From assembly GCF_004010195.1 (NCBI RefSeq), contig NC_057755.1, forward strand, positions 3,867,462-3,931,461: 64,000 nucleotides of DNA. The letters are read 5' to 3'. The notes under the pieces are model-generated. The model did no database searches. It saw nothing but the letters and a program-made list of their open reading frames with translations, and was not told the DNA's origin. A program made the translations under genes and the position numbers. Positions within the stretch are counted from its first letter, which is position 1. Every line of letters starts with the position of its first letter. Of this stretch, positions 10,088 through 52,438 are shown piece by piece. The DNA is from Chiloscyllium plagiosum. Taxonomy: Eukaryota.

Positions 10088-11690
10088 CATAGAACATAGA
10101 ACATAGAAGAATACAGCGGAGTACAGGCCCTTTGGCCCTCGATGTTGCGGTGATCCAAGCCCACCTAACTTACACTAGCCCACTATCCTCCATATGCCTA
10201 TCCAATGCCCGCTTAAATGCCCATAAAGAGAGAGAGTCCACCACTGCTACTGGCAGGGCATTCCATGAACTCACGACTCTCTGAGTAAAGAACCTACCCC
10301 TAACATCTGTCCTATACCTACCACCCCTTAATTTAAAGCTATGCCCCCTCGTAATAGCTGACTCCAAATGTGGAAAAAGGTCAACCCTATCTAACCCCCT
10401 AATCATCTTGTACACCTCTATCAAGTCACCCCTAAACCTTCTTTTCTCCAATGAAAACAACTCCAAATGCCTCAGCCTTTCCTCATACGATCTTCCTACC
10501 ATAGCAGGCAACATCCTGGAAAACCTCCTCTGCACCCGTTCCAGTGCCTCCACATCTTTCCTATCGTATGGCGAACAAAACTGCACACAATACTCCAGAT
10601 GCGGCCGCATCAGAGTCTTATACAACTGCAACATGATCTCAAGACTCCGGAACTCAATTCCTCTACCAATAAAAGCCGGTACGCCATATGCCTTCTTCAC
10701 CGCACTATTTACCTGGGTGGCAACTTTCAAAGATCGGTGTATGTGGACACCAAGATCCCTCTGCTCATCCACACTACCAAGTATCCGACCATTAGCCCAG
10801 TACCCCATCTTTTTGTTACTCTTACCAAAGTGAATCAACTCACACTTAGTTACATTGAACTCCATTTGCCACCTTTCTGCCCAGTTCTGCAACTTATCTA
10901 TATCCCGCTGTAACCTGCCACATCCTCCGACTTTCGTATCATCCGCAAACTTTCTCACCCAACCTTCTAACCCGTCCTCCACGTCATTTATAAAAATGAC
11001 AAACAGCAATGGTCCCAAAACAGATCCTTGCGGAACACCGCTAGTAACGGCACTCCAAGATGAACCTTTACCATCAACTACTACCCACTGTCTTCTTCCA
11101 GGCAGCCAATTTCTAATCCAAACCTCCAACTCACCCTCAATGCTACACCTCCGTATTTTATGAAGTAGCCTACCATGGGAAACCTTATCAAACGCCTTAC
11201 TAAAAGCCATATACACTACATCTACTGCTTTCCCCTCGTCCACCTCCTTAGTCATCTTCTCAAAGAATTCAATAAGGTTTGTGAGGCACGACCTGTCCTT
11301 CACAAAACTATGCTGACTATCCTTGATCACATTATTCCTATCCAGGTGTTCATAAATCCTATCCCTTACAATTCTCTCTCAGACTTTGCCCACAACAGAA
11401 GTGAGACTCACCAGCCTATAGTTTCTAGGGTTATGCCTACTCCCCTTCTTAAACAAGGGAACCACATTTGCGAGCCTCCAGTCTTCTGGCACTACTCCTG
11501 TAGACAACGAGGACATAAAAAGCAAGGCCAATGGCTCTGCAATCTCCTCCCTTGCTTCCCAGAGAATCCTAGGATAAATGCCATCAGGCCCAGGGGACTT
11601 ATCTATTTTCACCCTTTCCCGAATTTCCAACACCTCTTTCCAACATACCTCAAAGCCATTCATTCTACTTAATTGTGACTCAGTATTCAC
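10088..11690 (-). mobile_element. Relatively young CR1 LINE nested in an older CR1 (~9400-10087 plus ~11695-12190)
   Basis: 386-aa open RT segment with GVPQGSVLGP and FADDTK; (TTCTATG)n tail at 10088-10107. The older minus-strand element resumes in register on both sides. Confidence 0.93.
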
Positions 11691-20015: not shown

Positions 20016-23000
20016 GGACAGACAGAGAGAGAGAGACTTCACCACAATGAATCTGCACAATTACTGTCTTTACTGTTTGAATTCATGTATCGCTGGACAT
20101 CAGAGTCCGTCTGGGAAAATGAACAAACAGCGGCATTCGCTACTGACCTTGGAGGAACCTGTTTGGGAGGGGTCACTGCACATAAACAGATAAGTGAATA
20201 TTTTAAATGTGGCCGTACAGTAACTTTGCAGTAGTGAGTTAACTGGGTTCTTTTCTTGATAATATGTTTTATTAATATATGTCTCTTGATTAAACTTAAG
20301 AATATAAGCCATAAGTATTAAGTTAGCCTGGAGTGGTGTTTTGTAGAGGGACGAGAATGGGCTATTTCTTGGTCCTTGTATTGAAAAAAGAAAAAAAAGT
20401 GGGCCTTAGTTGAGTGATACGCTGTTCTTGCCGATTGCGGTAGTTTAGGGAGAGTTTACGTGTATTTGCAGATTATATCTGCAATATATGCATTGATTGT
20501 GAACTCTATCAGATCGTTTGGATCGTTGGAGAGAAAATGAGGAATTTACAAGAGCAAGGGTGTGTGATGGATGGCAGTTGCAGGAAGTTAGAAAAGTCAC
20601 AGATACGGTCACATAGATGGTGTAACTCCAGGAAAGTTATCACAGGTAGGTAGGTAGTTCAGGAGCATTCTGTGGCTATCCCGATTTCAAACAAGCATGC
20701 TGTTTTCGAAAATGTTAGGGGTGATGGATCCTCAGAGGAATGTAGCATTAACCGTTTAGTTTCTAGGATCTAGACTGGCTCAAATGCAATGAGGCTACGT
20801 CGGTTTCCAAGAGATCGATTGTGTTAGGGGACGCTCTAGTCCAAGATATAGACAGACGCTTCTGTGGCCAGCAACGAAAAGTAAGACTGGTGTGTTGCTT
20901 CCCTGGTGCTAGAATCAAGGATGCCTCAGAGAGGGTGCAGAGTGTTTTCAAGGGAGAGAGGGGGCCGCAGGAAGTCATTGCACACATTGGAACAAACGAG
21001 ATAGGAAGGGAAAAGACTGAGATTCTAAAGGGACATTACAGGGAGTTAGGCATAAATTTAAAAAGGAGGCCCTCGAGAGTAGTAATATCTGAATTACTCC
21101 CAGTACTCCGAACTAGCGAAGTCAGGAATAGAAGAATAGAGCAGATGAATGTATGTCTGAGGGGCTGGTGCATGGGAGATGGATTCGCAAATTTGGACCA
21201 TTGGAATCTCTTTTGGAGTGGAAGTGACCTGTAAAAGAAGGACGGATTGCACCTCAATTAGAAGGGGACTAATATACTGGCAAGGAAATTTGCTCGAGCT
21301 TCTCGGGAGGATTTCAAGTAGGAAGTTGGGGAGGATGGGGCCCAGGCAGATAGTGAGGAAAGAGATCAATCTGATACTGGTATAGTTGAGAACAGAAGCG
21401 AGTCAAACATTCAGGGCAGGCAGGGACAAGGTAGTACTAATAAATTAAACTGCATTTATTTCAATGCAAGGTGCCTAACAGGTAATGCAGATGGACTCAG
21501 GGCATGGTTAGAAACATGGGACTGGGATATCGTAGCAATTACAGAAACATGGCTCAGGGATGGGCAGGACTGGAAACTTGATGTTCCAGGATACAAATGC
21601 TGCAGGAAGGATAGAAAGGGAGGCAAGAGAGGAGGGGGTGGTGGCATTTTTGATAAGGGATAGCATTACAGCTGTGTTAAGGGAAGATAGTTCCAGAAAT
21701 ACATCCAGGAACGTTATTTGGGTGGAACTGAGAAATTAGAAAGGGACGATCACCTTATTAGAATTGTATTATAGATCCCCAAATAGTCAGAGGGAAATTG
21801 AGAAACAAACTTGTAAGAAGAAGTTACAAGCTATCTGTAAGAATAATAGGGTGGTTATAGGAGGGAATTTTAACTTTCCAAACATAGACTGGAACTGCCC
21901 TAGTGTTGAGGGTTTAGATGGAGACGAATTTGTTAAGTGCGTGCAAGGCAATTTTCTGATTCTGTATGTGAATGTACCTACTAGAGAAGGTGCAAAACGT
22001 GACTTACTCTTGGGAAATAAGGAAGGACAGGTGACTGAGGTGTCAGTGGGGGTGCACTTTGGGGCCAGTGACCATAATTCTATTAGATTCAAAATAATGA
22101 TGGAAAAGGATAGACCAGATCTAAGAGCTGAAGTTCTAAATTGGAGAAATGCCAATTTTGATGGTATTAGGCAAGAACTTTCGAAAGCTGACTGGGGGCA
22201 AATGTTCTCAGGTAAAAGGACGGCTGGGAAATGGGAAGCCTTCAGAAATGAGATAACAAGAAGCCAGAGAAAGTATAGTCATGTCAGGGTGAAAGGAAAG
22301 GCTGGTAGGTATGGGGAATGCTTGATGACTAAAGAAATTGAGTGTTTGAATAAGAAAAAGAAGAAAGCATATGTAAGGTATAGACAGGATAGATCGAGTG
22401 AATCCTCAGATGAGTATAAAGGAAGTAGGAGTATACGTAAGAGGGAAAACAGAAGGGCAAAAAGAAGACATGAGATAGCTTTGGCAAATAGAATTAAGGA
22501 GAATCCAAAGAGTTTTTACAAATACATTAAGGACAAAAGGCAAACTAGGGAGAGAATAGCCCCCCTCACAGATCAGCAAGGCGGCGTTTGTGTGGAGATG
22601 CAGAAAATGTGGGGAGGGGAGGGGGGATACAAAATGAATATTTTGCAACAGTATATACTGTGGAAAAGGATATGGAAGAGATAGACTATAGGGAAATAGA
22701 TGGGGACATCTTGCAAAATGTCTATATTACAGAGGAGGAAGTACTGGATGTCTTGAAACGGGTAAAGGTGGATAAATCTTCAGGACCTGCTCTGTTGTAC
22801 CCTAGAACTCTATGGGCAGCTAGAGAAGTGATTGCTGGGCCTCGTACTGAGATGTTTGTGTCATTAATAGTCACTTATGAGGTGCCAGAAGATTGGAGGT
22901 TGGCTTGCGTGGTGCCACTATTCAAGAAGGATGGTAAGGACAAGCCAGGGAACTATAGACCAGTGAGCCTGACATCGGTGGTGTGCAAATTATTGGAGGG

Positions 23001-24243
23001 AATCATGAGGGAAAGGTTGTACATGTACTTTGAAAGGCAAAAACTGATTAGGGATGGTCAACATGGCTCTGTGCATGGGAAATCATGTCTCACAAAATTG
23101 ATTGAGTTTTTTGATGAAGTAACAAAGAGGATTGACGAGGGCAGAGCTGTAGTATGTGATCCATATGGACTTTCAGTAAGCCGTTCGATAGGGTTCCCCA
23201 TGGGAGTCTGATTAGAAAGGTGAAATCTCACGGAATACATGGGGGAATGAGGCATTGGACTCAGAACTGGCTGAAAGGTAGAAGACAGAGGGTGGTGGTG
23301 GAGGGTTGTTTTTCAGACTGGAGGCCTGTGACCAGTGGAGCGCTGCATGGATCGGTGCTGGTTCGTCTTCCTTTTGTCAATTACCTCAGGCTACAACAGG
23401 ATCTTGACCAGATTGGCCAATTGGCTGAGAAGTGACAAATGGATTTTAATTCAAATAAATGAGAGATGATGCATTATGGGAAAACAAATCTTGGCACGAC
23501 TTATACACTTAATTGTAAGTCCGAGGATGTGTTGCTGAACAAAGAGACCTTGGAGTGCAGTTGCATTGCTCCTTGAAACTCGAGTCGCAGGTAGATAGGA
23601 TAGTGAAGAAGGCGTCTGGTATGCTTTCCTTTGTTGGTCAGAGTTTTGAGTACAGCATTTAGGACCTCATGTCCCGGCTGTACAGGACATTGCTTCGACC
23701 ACTGTTGGAATATTGCATGCAATTCTGGTCTCCTTCCTATCGGAAAGAAGTTGTAAAACTTGAAAGGGTTCAGAAAAAGAAACGCAAGCATGTTGCCAGG
23801 ATGGAGGATTTGAGCTATAAGGAGAGGCTGAACAGGCTGGGGCTGTATTCCCTGGAGCGTCGGAAGCCGAGGGGAGAACTTATGGAGGTTTATAAGATCA
23901 TGAGGGGCATGGATAGGGTAAATAGGCAAAGATTTTTCCCTGAGGTTGGGGAGTCTAGAACTAGTGGATACAGGTTCAGGGTGAGGGGGAAAGACATAAA
24001 AGACACCGAAGCATCAAAGTTTTCATGCAGAGGGTGGTACGTGTATGGAATGAGCTGCCAGAGGAAATGGTGGAGGCTGGTACGATTGCAACATTTAAGA
24101 GGCATTTGGATGTGTATATGAATAGGAAGGGTTTGGAGGATTATGGGCTAGGTGCTGGCCATGCGGTTGGAATATCTGGTCGGCATGGACGGGCTGGACC
24201 GAAGTGTCTGTTTCCATGCTGTACATCTCTATACTCGATGACT
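19830..24243 (+). mobile_element. Near full-length degenerate CR1 LINE (ORF1 SGNH esterase plus ORF2 APE-RT)
   Basis: ORF1 LGDALVQDIDRRFCG...VCCFPGARIKD...HIGTNEIG (20821-21310). ORF2 from ~21445 (CIYFNAR...DIVAITETWL) through the RT to the 3-prime tail; many frameshifts. Confidence 0.93.
19860..20080. repeat. (GA)n microsatellites within a two-unit tandem repeat
   Basis: GA tract followed by cttcaccacaatg(t/a)atctgcaca(g/a)ttactgtctttactgtttga occurs twice. Confidence 0.9.
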
Positions 24244-36560: not shown

Positions 36561-36760
36561 CAATGGTTCTATGAAGTTGGGTAGTTAGGAGCTGAGAGTG
36601 GTGACCATATTTCTACCATATCTGATTAATGATCCACACCTCCCCCCCACCGCCCCCCCCCCCACCGTCCTTACCCCCACACCAAAGACAAAACCAGAAA
36701 CACCGGTCACGCTCTGAAATCAGACACGGCCCACAGGATGCGAGGAACACAGTGAACACC

Positions 36761-36766
36761 TTTAAT
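36761..36766 (-). promoter_or_regulatory. Polyadenylation signal (ATTAAA) of defensin gene 1
   Basis: ATTAAA about 87 nt after the stop, followed by GT-rich ggtgttcactgtgttcc. Confidence 0.6.
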
Positions 36767-36852
36767 CACGACACAGAAGCAGTGGCTCAGGGCCCATAGG
36801 GACACATCCAATCACGAAAGATACTGTAGTTAGCTTCAGGCACAGCCTCAGA

Positions 36853-36986
36853 TTAATCTTGCGGTATATTGATACTTATGCAGCAAACGTAATGTTGTCT
36901 GCAACCACGACGACGCTCGAATTCATCACCGAGACATGTTTCAAATCTGCACTCCCCTCCGACAAATGTACATTTCTGGGATTGAC
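36853..36986 (-). CDS. Beta-defensin-like gene 1, coding exon 2 (mature peptide)
   Basis: Acceptor ctttgctttccag, then (R)QSQKCTFVGGECRFETCLGDEFERRRGCRQHYVCCISINIPQD-TAA. Six cysteines spaced C-x6-C-x4-C-x10-C-x5-CC with the G-x-C motif, a beta-defensin signature. Intron is 36987-37787 (801 nt). Confidence 0.92.
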
Positions 36987-37787
36987 CTGGAAAGCAAAGA
37001 CGAGAAGTTCATTGATTCCTGCAGTCAGGGGCCAAGGTTTCACCTCAGCCCGTGAGACCCCTGAACTTTAAAGACATATTTCTTGCAGTCACTGATGAGA
37101 AATCTGTACATAATGAACACAGTCCAATCCAAGGGAGGGGAACCTGTCGATTGCAGCAATACCGTGACATCCATTGACATGGAATGGCCTTAAAGGTTAT
37201 AATCTGCTGCTTATTTATTTGAAAAAGGCAAATAAACATGAAGTGTTTCAGAAATAAAGTGGTTTGTTCACTCATGGGAAATGTCTGCCATAATTCACCA
37301 ACTGCACAAGGACTTCATGGTAGACTGGTGGGACTATCACTGGACGGACATCCAAGACCATCAAGCTCATGTTCTGAAGAGCTGCCTTTGAATCTCATCG
37401 AGGAAGATGACGAAATATGAATTATATCCAAATAATCTGATGTCAAGTATGAAAACGCTGTTGATTATCTGGGGGAGGGATGCTGGTGGTGAAACAAGGG
37501 AATAGCTACTTCATTAATGTTCTTAAGAGAAGGAAACCTATTGTCATTACCTGCTCTGATTTAAACGTAACTCCAGATTCATTCCCAAATGCCTTCTGGG
37601 CAATAAGGAATGGACAATAAATCTTGGTTTAGCATCCCACGAACAGTTATTGTACATATTAACTGATTGATTTTAAACTCTTGTCAGCTAAATCCAGTGG
37701 GTTACGACTTAGTCTTCAGAGAGATGAGTGACTTCAGTCTGCCCTTCTGAATGTTTGTGAATATTGTTTGAGGATAAATGGACTCAC

Positions 37788-37881
37788 GTTTAAAGGAAAG
37801 ATGTTGTTTCATGACTTCATCAGCAGGGCCTGACTGCACCATCACCAAGGCCACAAGAAAAAAGAACAGGACAGTTCTCAT
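37788..37881 (-). CDS. Beta-defensin-like gene 1, coding exon 1 (signal peptide plus short propiece)
   Basis: Minus strand ATG at 37881 reads MRTVLFFFLVALVMVQSGPADEVMKQHLSFK plus one base (C), then donor GTGAGT (37787-37782). Hydrophobic signal core; phase-1 junction compatible with the exon at 36986. Confidence 0.9.
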
Positions 37882-37931
37882 CTTCCCCTGACTTCCTGCT
37901 GCACTATGAGCTGCCCGGAGGGTGGAAGCTT

Positions 37932-37938
37932 CTTATAT
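37932..37938 (-). promoter_or_regulatory. TATA box of defensin gene 1
   Basis: ATATAAG on the minus strand about 50 nt upstream of the ATG at 37881. Confidence 0.6.
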
Positions 37939-38039
37939 GTTACACAGGCTGTCCCACCGTTAATAATTGCAGAACCACAACACAGACAGAATCTGTGATG
38001 CACATGTGAAGACGTCATTTCAATTATGAGTCAAACAAT

Positions 38040-38420
38040 AACACACACAGACACACGACTGTGTACTTAAACAACCAGACACAGGCACAAAACAATATAT
38101 ACATATATACATAATCATAGATACACACACACACATAAAATAATATATACACATATACACAAATGCACAAACTTACATATTCAAACACACAGGTACACAC
38201 ACACACAAATACACACACACAGATGGACACAAATACTCAGACTCATACACAGATACACGCACATGCATAGATACACTAACACACACAGACACAAACGCAC
38301 ACACAGACACACTCATACACACAGGTGGACACACTCACCCATACAAACACACACAGACACACACACGCACATACACAGACACAAAAGCACATACATAGAC
38401 ACACTGACACACACACTATC
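38040..38420. repeat. Degenerate (CA)n tract upstream of defensin gene 1
   Basis: Direct inspection. Confidence 0.9.
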
Positions 38421-42695: not shown

Positions 42696-45588
42696 GTGAG
42701 GATGTCTTTCAATGGGGAATGTGAGCACGGAGAATATTGGAGAAATTCCAAGCCGGTCTGGCAGCGGAGTGAGAGACACACTACTCACATTTCCAGTTCC
42801 ATTCTTGAAGACATTCTGAAGAAGAGTGAGAACAGACTGGAAACGTCAACTCTGTTTCTCTCTCTGTCACTGCACAGATGCTGCCACAGCTGCTGTGTGT
42901 CTCCATCAGTGTCTGCTTCAGATTGTCAGCACGAAAGGATTTAGCCTTTCATCGTTGAGGGAAGCAAGGTATGGATGGGTGGAGGAGGCAGACTGGGCAA
43001 AAGCATAAAGCCATTCAAGCTTCTCACCTCTGAATTCTGCTATTCCACCTGTGTTTGTACAGGCTTCATTACATCACGTGTCTGCTTTGCTCACCAATCC
43101 CCCCAACCCTGGTTTCTCCGCAATCTCTTGCTGTCGGAAACTCTTCTCGGGATCTGTTCCCCTCAGGATCTGGAGTCATGCACGTGATGTGAATTGTCAT
43201 AGGCCAGCATGCTTTCCCATTCCATGGTGCCTTATTGTATATTCCAGATTCTTCATTTGTTAATGGGGTGTGAGTGATGCATTCCAACGTTCATCGTCTG
43301 TCAGTAATCACAGCTGAGAGGGCAGCTGAGAGACAGCGACACATTACTCTGGTTCTGGAGTCACATAGAGCCAGACTAAGTGAAAAATATCGTTCTTATT
43401 CCAGAACAAATATTCCGGAACCAGATGGATATTTAGGAAAATTGAGAATTGCCATAGCTGCATCATTGTTACATTTTTTCTTTCCATTTCACATTTCTCC
43501 AGCCGTTATGGTGGGAATGTTCTCTTGTGCTTCTGGATGATTATTAAGGTGAAATTCCCATCGTCCCTCCACCACCATTCTCATTCTCCAAGGTGATGTA
43601 GTTTGACCGGCGAGAGAAAAGTCGAAAGGGAGAATGAAGAACTGCGCAAGAGAATCTAAACTTTTAGGCAAATCGAATTTTGTTTGTATATGTTATTCGG
43701 TTGGATTTTAGTGAAATCTACAGGTAAAGATGTGAAATTCCCACATTACAGGAAGGTTAGAAAGATCTACCGAGGGAGCAATATACTTGGCCTTATTTAT
43801 TCAAAGAAGCAGCTGAAAATGGCTCCTCCACAACTGAGTCAGATCGATTTCTTTTGGTTGAAGCTTGTCAAACGAGATATGAATCTTGTAAAACGAGAGC
43901 AACTCACCACTTGGGTTGGTCTTACACTAGAATATCTGTTGCAAGCTTTATATCAAGCCAGTGATGAACTTTAAGTTCAAGAAAAGATGTGAAAACATGT
44001 AAATCTCAACCTTATTCGAGAAAAAGAAGCAGTCAATTCGAGCACATTAAGGCCAGCAGCAATGAGTATGTGTCACACCTGCAGTATGTGAGCATTAGGC
44101 TAAAATACAGACAACGTCTTGGGAAGGGGAAATGTTCTTTGGATTATTGGCAGCAGGAGGGCGTCACACCTTTTAGGGTCAGACTGCGTGATTTGGTCAG
44201 TGTTCAGCGACAAGAGCGTGTGATTGACAGTCGGGTTTTCCATAGGGAGCCAGACAGCAGGGATACAGGAGCCTCATCTTTGGCAAGAGTGGTACCAGAA
44301 TGAACATAAAACCAGTCAAGTGGGAGAACACCAAAAGTAATGGAATTGTAGGAGAGGGCTCACAGGAATCGACACCTTTCTCTGCAGTAATGAACGTGAG
44401 TCCAGGAGACTGTGTTCCATTCCTGTGCTGAGGTTCAGGGCCCAAGATCAGGGCTGTCGATAAGTTCACAATGGGATGGGCTGGAGGCAATCTTACTGAT
44501 CCACGTACTTACAGACAATACATACCAGGCAAGAAACAAGGTTCTGCCAACACATTGTCAGGAGCTCGGTGTCCAATTTAGAAGCTAAACTTCTGGATTA
44601 ATATCTCTCCCACGTGTTACTTGGCACAGGGCCATTCAGGTTAGGCAGGAACATTGGTCATCAGAGACTAGCGCGAAAAAATGGGATGTGGTTCTCTCAT
44701 CACAGACACTGCCAGACCTGCTGAGGTTAGATTTCAGTTTTTCGATAAAGACACTTTTTCTTCATACATTTCCGGTTATATTTCCTCGCAGTGTAATTTG
44801 TGATACGAAAGATCCTGGACGGTTGCTGTTATGCTCTTCAGCTGATCGTGTCACATTAAAAGATGTTTGCACATGAATACCATGGTGACTCTGTTCCTAT
44901 TCGCATTGAAACCTCTGCCATTCTGTAGATGTCTGGATGGACAGTGTCAGTAAGAGTGAGGTCAGTCATCTCTCCATTGTTGGAAACCCATCTTATTCAC
45001 TGATGTCCCTTCCCTCAGAAAAGACAGTGCGTTGTCCTCACTCGGTCCTTCATGTGACTCCAGATCCTGGGAAATAGGGAATGGGGAATAAATGCTGACC
45101 TCAGCAGCAAATCACACATTCAGAGTGTGAGAAGATTCCCATGTCAATCAGTGAGTGAAATGTTCTTGTTTAAAGATGGCAGCTCCTACCCTGGAGTGCA
45201 GAAGGACAGCTCTGTGACATGTTTTCACACTGGAATAAATTGTCCCGATGCAATATCAAACGAAATATTCTGTGATCTCGGGATGGGGCCAATGGTGTTT
45301 GAGTAGAAAGCGTTATTGCTGTCAGATTCCGATTCTGTTTTTGTTATTTCTTTATGATGTACTGACCAGCAACACTCCTTCATAATTGGGATTAAACTTG
45401 TTGTTGTAATTCGTTTGTTCATTGACAGAATTTGAAAAACAGCAACAAAGCTGAGTAATGCTGCGACCTCGACCTCCCCAAGGAGGTTCCACACTGTATA
45501 AGGTAGCGTCTCTGGGAATAATCAGCTCAGAGTTTCAAACAAGGAGGTTGTCAGCTGCCTGAAGGGGCACATCACCTCACACGGAGAA

Positions 45589-50729: not shown

Positions 50730-51130
50730 TTTGTCGCGGTTGGAGCATTTGAGCTATATGGCTAGGCTGAATAGGCTGGGATTGTTTACTCTGGAGCGTC
50801 AGAGGCTGAAGGGTGACCTTCTAGAGATGTATAAAGTCATGACGGACATGATTAGGGTAAATAGACAAGACCTCTTCACTGGAGTGGCGTAGTTCAGAAC
50901 TAGAGGGCAGAGGTTTAGGGTTAGAGGGGCAATGTTTGCGCACAGAGGATGAGCTTCCTGAGGAAGTGTTGGAGGCTGGTATAACATTTAAGAGGCATCT
51001 GGATGGGTATATGAACAGGAAGGCTTCAGAGAGATATGGGCCAAGTTCTGGAAAACGGGATCACATGAGGTTAAAATACCTGGTCATCATGAAAGAGTTG
51101 GACTGAAAGGTCTGTTACCGTGCTTTAACT
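50730..51130 (+). mobile_element. CR1 3-prime fragment
   Basis: RLNRLGLFTLERQRLKGDLLEMYKVM...RTRGQRF. Confidence 0.85.
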
Positions 51131-52199
51131 GAATGTGCCATAAAGGGGCAGCACAGTGGTTTACACTGCTGTCTCCGAACACCAGGGAGCTGGGCTCGAT
51201 TCTGTCCTTGGGTGGCTGTCTGTGAGGTGTTAGCACATTCTTCTTGTGTATGTGTGGGTTTCCTTTTACATTCCAAAAGATGCGCAGGTCAGGTGAATTG
51301 GCAATGCTAAATTGCCCAAAGTGTTAGGAACGGTATTCACAGGTAAAGTAGGGAAATGATTAGGGGTGGGTCAATCTTCAGTGGACTTGCTGAGCCAAAG
51401 GGCTTGGTTCCACACTGCAGGGAATCAATTTTTTTTAAATCAGATCCTTTCCTGCTTCACAGTGTTCTCAAAATATCTCATTCAATACATCCGAATCATC
51501 CTCCTCCTCATCAAAATCCAAACTGTTGAATACTTCAATAGCTTTATCTTCTCCATTTCTTTTCTGAAATGCCGTTTGACATGAGGTAGAGCTGATGGAA
51601 AATTGGTGTTTCTTCTATTGTTCGGAACATGCACCAGGGATGAAGTGATAACATTGAGAGTGAGTGCTGAACGTACAGTAAGAGACAGATAGATTAGATT
51701 CGAGGACAAGTTGCCTTGACCAAACAAAATATTATGTACTCTTTCTTATGCATCGATTAGGTACACGAGAAATTAGGGAAACAACCAGAAAAGTGAACAA
51801 ATAAAACTGGTTTTCGAATATTTGAATGGGGAGTGCATCAATCCCCGAAATGTTGCAATACTAGGACGATGCACCAAGTTGATGTAGCAAGCTGCTAATC
51901 CATCTCCAACAAAGCGGGTGCGAGGTTGGTTTGGGGGTGTTGAAAGAGACTGTCCCACTGTCTTGCCCCTCCATGTAGCTCAGACTGGGAGGCTCTAAGG
52001 TGAACTTATGTGCATCATTGAAGAAATAATTGGAACATGAAGCAGTTATTGGGATAGAAGACGCGTGAAGAGCTTCGAGTGGAATGCAGGAAATTGGATC
52101 AGGGAATCGAACTGCATACAGGTAAGATGGACCAATTGGCCGCTTCTGTGCCACAACATTCTATCATTCTGTGATCTCTTCCTCTCTCTCTTGAACCAG

Positions 52200-52318
52200 G
52201 TCTGCCTTTCCGCTGTGGAAAAGACAATGGGAGATGCAGACTAAGCACGTGTGCAGAGAATGAGTTCGAAACTAATGGGAAGTGTCTCTTGTTCTTCAAG
52301 TGTTGCAAGAGCTTGTGA
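52200..52318 (+). CDS. Beta-defensin-like gene 2, mature-peptide exon (signal exon not firmly identified)
   Basis: Polypyrimidine acceptor ctcttcctctctctcttgaaccag, phase 1, then LPFRCGKDNGRCRLSTCAENEFETNGKCLLFFKCCKSL-TGA. Same 6-4-10-5-0 cysteine spacing as gene 1 and shared G-x-CR, TC and EFE. Confidence 0.88.
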
Positions 52319-52432: not shown

Positions 52433-52438
52433 AATAAA
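52433..52438 (+). promoter_or_regulatory. Polyadenylation signal (AATAAA) of defensin gene 2
   Basis: AATAAA about 115 nt downstream of the TGA at 52318. Confidence 0.65.

Follow-up and report, generated by a model that had tools for sequence, protein, structure and literature searches.

Does a short stretch of shark DNA without a long open reading frame hold a working beta-defensin gene, and, if so, what kind of beta-defensin would it make? The locus in question lies on the minus strand at positions 36761-37938 of a 64,000-nucleotide (nt) stretch of the Chiloscyllium plagiosum genome, hereafter the window, in whose positions coordinates are given. This window is part of C46, a scaffold of 12.8 Mb in an assembly of 3.56 Gb, which we searched in six frames with the peptide of the second exon. 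The sequence comparisons set out below indicate a real and intact gene of the beta-defensin kind, belonging to a divergent subfamily that is near-neutral in charge and fast-evolving, and apparently unannotated. We give a rough probability of 0.7 to the reading that the locus is an intact and probably functional member of a multigene family of shark beta-defensin-like genes, within which it falls into the subfamily that we call type A.

A sequence-only reading of the window had described a TATA box, an ATG, a 94-nt exon with a GTGAGT donor, an 801-nt intron, a six-cysteine exon, a TAA stop and an ATTAAA signal at this place, and we recovered all of these elements base for base:

37938-37932, minus strand: TATA-like box ATATAAG, 56 nt 5' of the ATG, a putative promoter element
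37881-37879, minus strand: start codon ATG, with an A at -3
37881-37788, minus strand: coding part of exon 1, 94 nt, or 31 codons plus one base, with donor AAC/GTGAGT
37787-36987, minus strand: predicted phase-1 intron of 801 nt, from GTGAGT to a polypyrimidine tract and a CAG acceptor
36986-36853, minus strand: coding part of exon 2, 134 nt, with the six-cysteine domain and a TAA stop at 36855-36853
36766-36761, minus strand: ATTAAA polyadenylation signal, 87 nt 3' of the stop

With the exons joined in phase 1, the spliced frame spans 228 nt, that is 75 codons and a stop, and its translation by coordinates is identical to the product of 75 amino acids (aa) given in that earlier reading. The gene is missing from the list of long open reading frames, as had also been remarked, because the unspliced open frames of its coding exons reach only 59 aa (from the ATG to a stop, running into the intron) and 51 aa. 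The arrangement of the cysteines (Cys) is far from commonplace: in the six frames of the window, a beta-defensin-type Cys pattern occurs twice, in exon 2 of this gene and in a plus-strand exon at 52214-52306, whereas 200 first-order Markov simulations of the window gave a mean of 0.005 matches; one simulation of the 200 had a match, and none had two or more.

The two exons appear to divide the work in the manner of a secreted peptide precursor. Read by eye, the product of exon 1 opens with Met-Arg and continues with a hydrophobic core of 13 residues. Positions 17-20 are taken by small residues, after which comes an acidic stretch that ends in K-R, a dibasic pair whose Arg codon is split across the intron. 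The best 10-residue Kyte-Doolittle mean of this exon, 3.42, is the top value of the hydropathy scan, and by this simple criterion exon 1 is predicted to carry an N-terminal secretion signal. Exon 2 specifies a domain of 43 residues with the Cys spacing C-x6-C-x4-C-x10-C-x5-CC, corresponding to a mature peptide of ~5.0 kDa with a net charge (K+R-D-E) of 0 and an isoelectric point (pI) of 6.74. We can picture how such a gene would operate: a TATA-type promoter would drive a short two-exon transcript; exon 1 would provide a signal peptide of ~17-20 residues, cleaved most likely after one of the small residues 18-20 (from the (-3,-1) rule, applied by eye), and then a short acidic propiece with a putative processing site at its K-R end; and exon 2 would provide the 43-residue peptide, presumably folded around three disulfides, which in beta-defensins are paired C1-C5, C2-C4 and C3-C6 and go with a three-stranded beta-sheet. 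Once secreted, this peptide would act extracellularly, perhaps in host defence or immune signalling. At the level of the family, growth would come from tandem duplication on one 12.8-Mb scaffold, and selection would keep the mature-peptide exon diverse, with little divergence in the signal exon, the intron or the flanks.

Is the gene alone? The genome search returned seven type-A copies of exon 2 at E <=7e-7, with weaker matches besides. All seven are open, keep all six Cys and end in TAA. Exon 1 is readable in six of them, the seventh having Ns across the region, and in each of the six it has a 94-nt coding part and a GTGAGT donor, followed by an intron of 788-815 nt and the same acceptor. 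A polyadenylation signal stands at +86 or +87 in five of the seven copies (one locus ends early, and one has no signal within 400 nt), and where the upstream sequence of a paralogue can be read, TATATG occupies the position of the TATA box in four cases out of five. Scaffold C46 carries five of the copies within 3.84-4.31 Mb, with exons of a second subfamily, type B, interspersed among them, and the other two are on small unplaced contigs.

What distinguishes these copies from one another lies chiefly in exon 2. Measured against the five fully readable paralogues, our gene has a nucleotide identity of 92-94% for the intron, 93-96% for exon 1 and 91-95% for the 5' flank (92-95% over 200 nt), against 74-85% for exon 2; among type-A copies at large, flanks and introns are 89-97% identical. 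In another comparison, the exon-1 coding part of the six readable copies is 81-90% identical to that of our gene. Expressed as counts, the differences amount to 20-35 of 134 sites for exon 2 and to 44-64 of 775-790 for the intron, giving odds ratios of 2.5-3.95 (one-sided Fisher p from 1.7e-3 to 3.3e-8). This excess of change in exon 2 is significant at 0.05 in 11 of the 15 pairs for which both regions are available, and is absent between the closest copies. In defensins, a mature-peptide exon in which replacement change outpaces the intron whilst the Cys are kept is classic behaviour, and type A shows both this faster change and a tandem multigene cluster. By Nei-Gojobori counting, exon-2 dN/dS, the ratio of replacement to synonymous change per site, exceeds 1 in most pairs, with dN up to 0.42 and all six Cys kept, though the synonymous sites are few (~26). 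Replacement change that runs ahead of the intron and yet spares every Cys is, on these alignments, not what a decaying pseudogene would be expected to show.

The case for homology to beta-defensins rests on the relatives of type A in the same genome. The second Cys pattern of the window marks one of them:

52200-52318, plus strand: type-B six-Cys exon with a phase-1 acceptor, the same Cys spacing as our gene and a TGA stop, with an AATAAA near 52434

The Pfam matches of the type-B peptides (n=6) are solely to two beta-defensin models. This exon scores 17.6 bits against PF00711 (E 0.004), under the cut-off of 21, and two of the six type-B peptides pass it, namely the sister copies at loci L015 (26.2 bits) and L010 (21.5 bits). 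A whole-genome scan with PF00711 brought out a third subfamily, type C, on scaffold C49 and small contigs, and both of its peptides examined are over the cut-off. All 16 aligned shark peptides of types A, B and C have the same Cys spacing, which falls inside the range of vertebrate beta-defensins, C-x(4-8)-C-x(3-5)-C-x(9-13)-C-x(4-7)-CC. Nine columns are invariant across the three types. Besides the six Cys, these are a Gly two positions ahead of Cys 2, an Arg that follows Cys 2 and a Glu that follows Cys 3. Our peptide is 28-34% identical to types B and C, and profile comparison with hhalign aligns type A with type B at 92% probability (E 6e-7) and with type C at 89% (E 2e-6). When the Cys columns were held fixed and the others between Cys 1 and Cys 6 permuted, the mean score fell to ~13, compared with real scores of 29.0 (type B) and 28.2 (type C), which were reached by 0 of 200 and 1 of 200 permutations, respectively. 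In a protein-language-model search, the top three named neighbours are likewise all beta-defensin clusters (0.81, 0.79 and 0.79), values that, being below 0.9, are a lead only. Gene layout points the same way. According to one review, beta-defensins and big defensins have in common a phase-1 intron at the 5' boundary of the Cys-domain region (PMC7203481), and another paper describes beta-defensin genes as having two exons, the second of which carries all six Cys (PMC11541337); in the shark, a signal/pro exon and a GT...AG intron of predicted phase 1 directly precede the Cys domain in all six readable type-A copies. Through these paralogous subfamilies that pass Pfam thresholds, we find indirect but consistent evidence that our gene would be homologous to beta-defensins beyond the Cys framework. 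The suggestion of a beta-defensin-like two-exon gene has therefore held up on its Cys spacing, its phase-1 join, its clustered and fast-evolving family, and its profile homology to subfamilies recognised by PF00711.

Several results nevertheless weigh against this reading. The search with beta-defensin models that had been proposed for the 75-aa product did not bear it out: taken alone, the peptide matches nothing in Pfam, even with E values of up to 10 allowed. None of the seven type-A peptides is over a Pfam cut-off, the best reaching 15.8 bits with PF13841 where 22.2 are needed; five of the seven have some match at E <=10, all sub-threshold, four to beta-defensin models and one to Defensin_3. 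The matches to PF13841 (4/7) are full-length, with E of 0.019-0.46, and PF00711 is matched additionally in one. Searched by sequence against the PDB, the peptide and the type-A profile match no solved beta-defensin, returning chance rows; type B likewise gave chance rows only, and the sole row for type C was Beta-defensin 3 (1kj6), at E 0.72. The peptide is also not cationic, its charge of 0 and the subfamily range of -1 to +3 (n=7) being atypical of classical cationic defensins. As for selection, the 17 of 21 pairs with exon-2 dN/dS above 1 come from a set of pairs that are not independent, and gene conversion that homogenises introns could partly explain the excess of change in exon 2. The duplicated unit is 90-97% identical throughout, so the conservation of splice sites and promoter would by itself be weak evidence. 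Lastly, the genomic surroundings are not those expected. Cathepsin B is the usual neighbour of tetrapod beta-defensin clusters, and the sole match to a cathepsin-B propeptide is on scaffold C9 at 0.58 Mb, not on C46, where genes for TFAP2 and a signal peptide peptidase (HM13-type) were not found either.

How else might the locus be explained? One could take it for a young and silent duplicate, a copy that looks intact but is untranscribed or decaying within a family of which only some paralogues work. All the copies are recent, to judge from the likeness of their flanks and introns, and their intact signals may thus be inherited rather than maintained; moreover, broken copies do exist elsewhere, such as locus L012 with its in-frame TGA and several type-B-like and type-C-like matches with stops. 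Against this, our gene shows neither a stop nor a frameshift and has its splice sites intact, the type-A copies are open without exception, and the second exon of our gene outpaces the intron while retaining the six Cys and the core Gly, Arg and Glu, a combination that neutral decay alone does not yield. We therefore regard a silent duplicate as improbable. More improbable still would be convergence, in which a lineage-specific family of secreted peptides mimics the Cys pattern of beta-defensins without being related to them. It would sit well with the failure of our peptide against every Pfam beta-defensin model, with the tendency of small Cys-rich peptides to inflate profile scores, and with a predicted fold of low confidence: AlphaFold2 gave a mean predicted local distance difference test score (pLDDT) of 59.7 with a 12-sequence input and of 56.3 with a 16-sequence input, and a Foldseek search of the first of these models against the PDB returned nothing at E <=0.001 and one chance row. 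Yet the fixed-Cys permutations hardly ever attain the real hhalign scores, four of the seven type-A peptides have sub-threshold beta-defensin matches, and type A is interleaved on C46 with type-B exons that pass Pfam and with which it has intron phase and exact Cys spacing in common. This leaves convergence a very small share of our belief.

A third alternative accepts the fold and questions the function. Some beta-defensin relatives in other vertebrates are known as receptor ligands, reproductive peptides or toxin-like peptides, and the shark peptide might similarly have a job other than killing, be it as a ligand of the chemoattractant type, as a peptide of the reproductive tract or egg case, or as a toxin-like peptide. 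Its lack of net charge, in a subfamily that spans -1 to +3, suits such a role, and rapid diversification is also what one would expect of arms races over reproduction or between receptor and ligand; with a charge of 0, this copy is a less certain candidate for direct membrane killing than a cationic defensin would be. The weakly cationic members of type A, with a pI of up to 8.7, could still be antimicrobial. We consider a purely non-killing peptide unlikely, whilst treating a signalling or reproductive role as a serious alternative; host defence appears to be the most likely role. Taking all of this together, an intact and probably functional type-A gene is the reading that we retain.

Sequencing data from other sources touch on the locus in different ways. 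Contigs of two public runs with the same organism label, X1 and X2, possibly derived from the assembly's own animal, cover exon 2 with 0 differences:

36757-37016: record 1 of run X1, covering exon 2 with 0 differences
36760-36910: record 10 of run X2, covering exon 2 with 0 differences

These contigs are genomic; they cross the exon-intron borders unspliced and contain no joints. Over 36600-38100, the word depth of the X1 and X2 contigs is up to 100-600 in the intron and exon 1, and 5-50 in exon 2. Many of the contigs are 3-5% off the window at positions where the paralogues vary, so that several family members are collapsed in these runs. Two single-cell RNA runs, X5 and X6, gave 0 reads on the stretch from just 2% and 6% of their data, too little to gauge expression. 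Upstream of the gene, 220-540 nt 5' of its ATG, ~300 nt of imperfect, (TG)n-rich low-complexity DNA occupy positions 38100-38420, and between this tract and the TATA box lie the words TGACTCA, TGACGTC and TTCTGCAAT, which by eye we take to be AP-1-, cAMP response element (CRE)- and C/EBP-like, respectively.

The other subfamilies of the repertoire present a more varied picture. At E <=0.001, the genome holds 18 matches to a type-B peptide (16 of them without stops) and 25 to a type-C peptide (22 without stops), two sets that may overlap and in which small contigs possibly duplicate haplotypes; most of the matches fall on the small scaffolds C46 and C49 or on small contigs. For type B, no first exon was found within 12 kb upstream of the window exon, the duplicated unit reaching ~9 kb upstream in three paralogous loci. 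Two candidates were set aside, one at 51595-51659, a weak look-alike with no ATG-led frame in any of four loci, and one at 44873-44945, whose hydrophobicity is lost in two paralogues. At locus L010 (C46, ~3.8597-3.8602 Mb), two open type-B Cys exons stand on the same strand, 383 nt apart, at locus positions 1109-1222 and 1492-1605, both with the acceptor altered to ...ACGAG; here the exon by itself has been duplicated locally, in tandem. Type C is represented by loci L017, L018, L020 and L022 (on C49 at 5.71 Mb and on small contigs), and many matches are spread over C49 from 3.56 to 7.86 Mb. A candidate first exon of type C lies 1.3 kb upstream in L017, with 91 nt and a phase-1 donor; near the likely cleavage site it has E-P-x-T-A-D where type A has Q-P-G-T-A-D, a likeness between signal exons that is statistically weak (BLASTP E 0.11). 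Locus L012 (C49:5484339-5484446) holds a fourth type of six-Cys exon, probably a pseudogene, in which the in-frame TGA falls just 5' of the final Cys pair. Its signal-like candidate exon, 1.4 kb upstream, measures 94 nt. Like the type-C candidate, it is comparable in length and phase to the signal exon of type A and is similar to it in a short stretch around the probable cleavage site, a similarity that is again statistically weak.

Elsewhere in the window, retroelement remains occupy 10170-11378 (minus strand) and 21740-23211 (plus strand), with frames matching reverse transcriptase (PF00078, E 2e-25) and endonuclease-reverse transcriptase (PF14529). Repeat fragments at 50760-51250 look by eye like pieces of short and long interspersed nuclear elements (SINE/LINE). 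No other Pfam-recognisable gene was found in the eight long frames of the window that were scanned.

Has the family been described before? The host had been taken for a cartilaginous fish, and this proved correct: the proteins of two intronless Jun-family genes of the genome are identical to Chiloscyllium plagiosum entries in RefSeq, one of them falling in a one-member cluster, which makes the host a bamboo shark or something very closely related. The cluster of the second lists 16 elasmobranch species, and the word-indexed protein collection from which it comes thus holds shark sets. In that collection, at a sensitivity of three shared 5-residue words, queries with exon 2, with the 16-sequence alignment and with the 59-aa exon-1 frame turned up nothing related to types A, B or C in the size range of 19-104 residues. 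A profile search of 1.84 billion representatives, sensitive to ~33 bits, likewise found no relative, returning just two long repetitive proteins. The family seems, then, to be missing from the shark annotations searched. A full-text literature search found no description of a beta-defensin from a shark or ray, most subscription journals being outside its scope, such that an earlier report is possible. In the parts of the reviews at hand, the antimicrobial agents given for cartilaginous fish are transferrin, squalamine and kenojeinin only (2019; PMC6795676), kenojeinin is the only one given for sharks and skates (2025; PMC12734493), and the range of beta-defensins is drawn from teleosts to mammals (2020; PMC7203481). 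Within the limits of these searches, the view that such genes were missed by annotation and are poorly characterised in cartilaginous fish is upheld.

It is tempting to go further and to see in this gene one piece of a large and undescribed beta-defensin repertoire of a cartilaginous fish, of which type A would be a near-neutral, fast-diversifying part missed by family models. We offer this wider proposal tentatively, at somewhat less than even odds, and its consequences would be considerable. If it is true, the common ancestor of jawed vertebrates already had an expanding set of two-exon, phase-1 beta-defensins with six Cys in one exon; the three-exon layout of teleosts would be derived; and the family range of teleosts to mammals found in reviews would need to be extended. 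A clustered and fast-evolving shark family would fill a gap at the base of the jawed vertebrates and indicate the ancestral gene layout, and would give comparative immunology dozens of new peptides that need to work in urea-rich, high-salt body fluids. It would also mean that small two-exon immune genes are absent from current shark gene sets, as the empty protein searches show.

Where, then, does the shark gene stand among known systems? Its closest comparison is within its own genome, where type-B and type-C exons have the Cys spacing and acceptor phase of type A, and differ from it in reaching the Pfam cut-off. From the big defensins of invertebrates and amphioxus, it is set apart by an exon 1 that holds just a signal peptide and a propiece of ~12-15 residues, and the hydrophobic globular N-terminal domain of big defensins is not present before its Cys domain.

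The beta-defensins of teleosts (PF13841) are near in some respects and distant in others. Four of the seven type-A peptides give full-length, if sub-threshold, matches to the teleost model, and the mature peptide of seabream is of 42-43 residues, compared with 43 in the shark. However, in the parts of the same source that cover gene structure (PMC11541337), the teleost genes consist of three exons and divide their Cys 4 + 2 over exons 2 and 3, where the shark gene has all six in one exon; the seabream genes are unclustered, whereas those of the shark form a large cluster; and the seabream peptides carry a charge of +2 to +4.5, as against 0.

With the mammalian-type genes (PF00711), the differences are of another sort: the shark peptide is below the reach of PF00711 and has a charge of 0, its spacing is x10 between Cys 3 and Cys 4 and x5 between Cys 4 and Cys 5, and the cluster is not beside cathepsin B. 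In architecture, however, the two are alike. As parts of the published accounts describe for such genes, exon 1 encodes the signal and propiece and exon 2 the six Cys (PMC11541337), with a phase-1 intron just 5' of the Cys domain (PMC7203481). Both are also clustered in tandem, both have a mature exon that changes faster than the signal exon, and both the mammalian-type peptides and the shark types bear the G-x-C motif at the second Cys.

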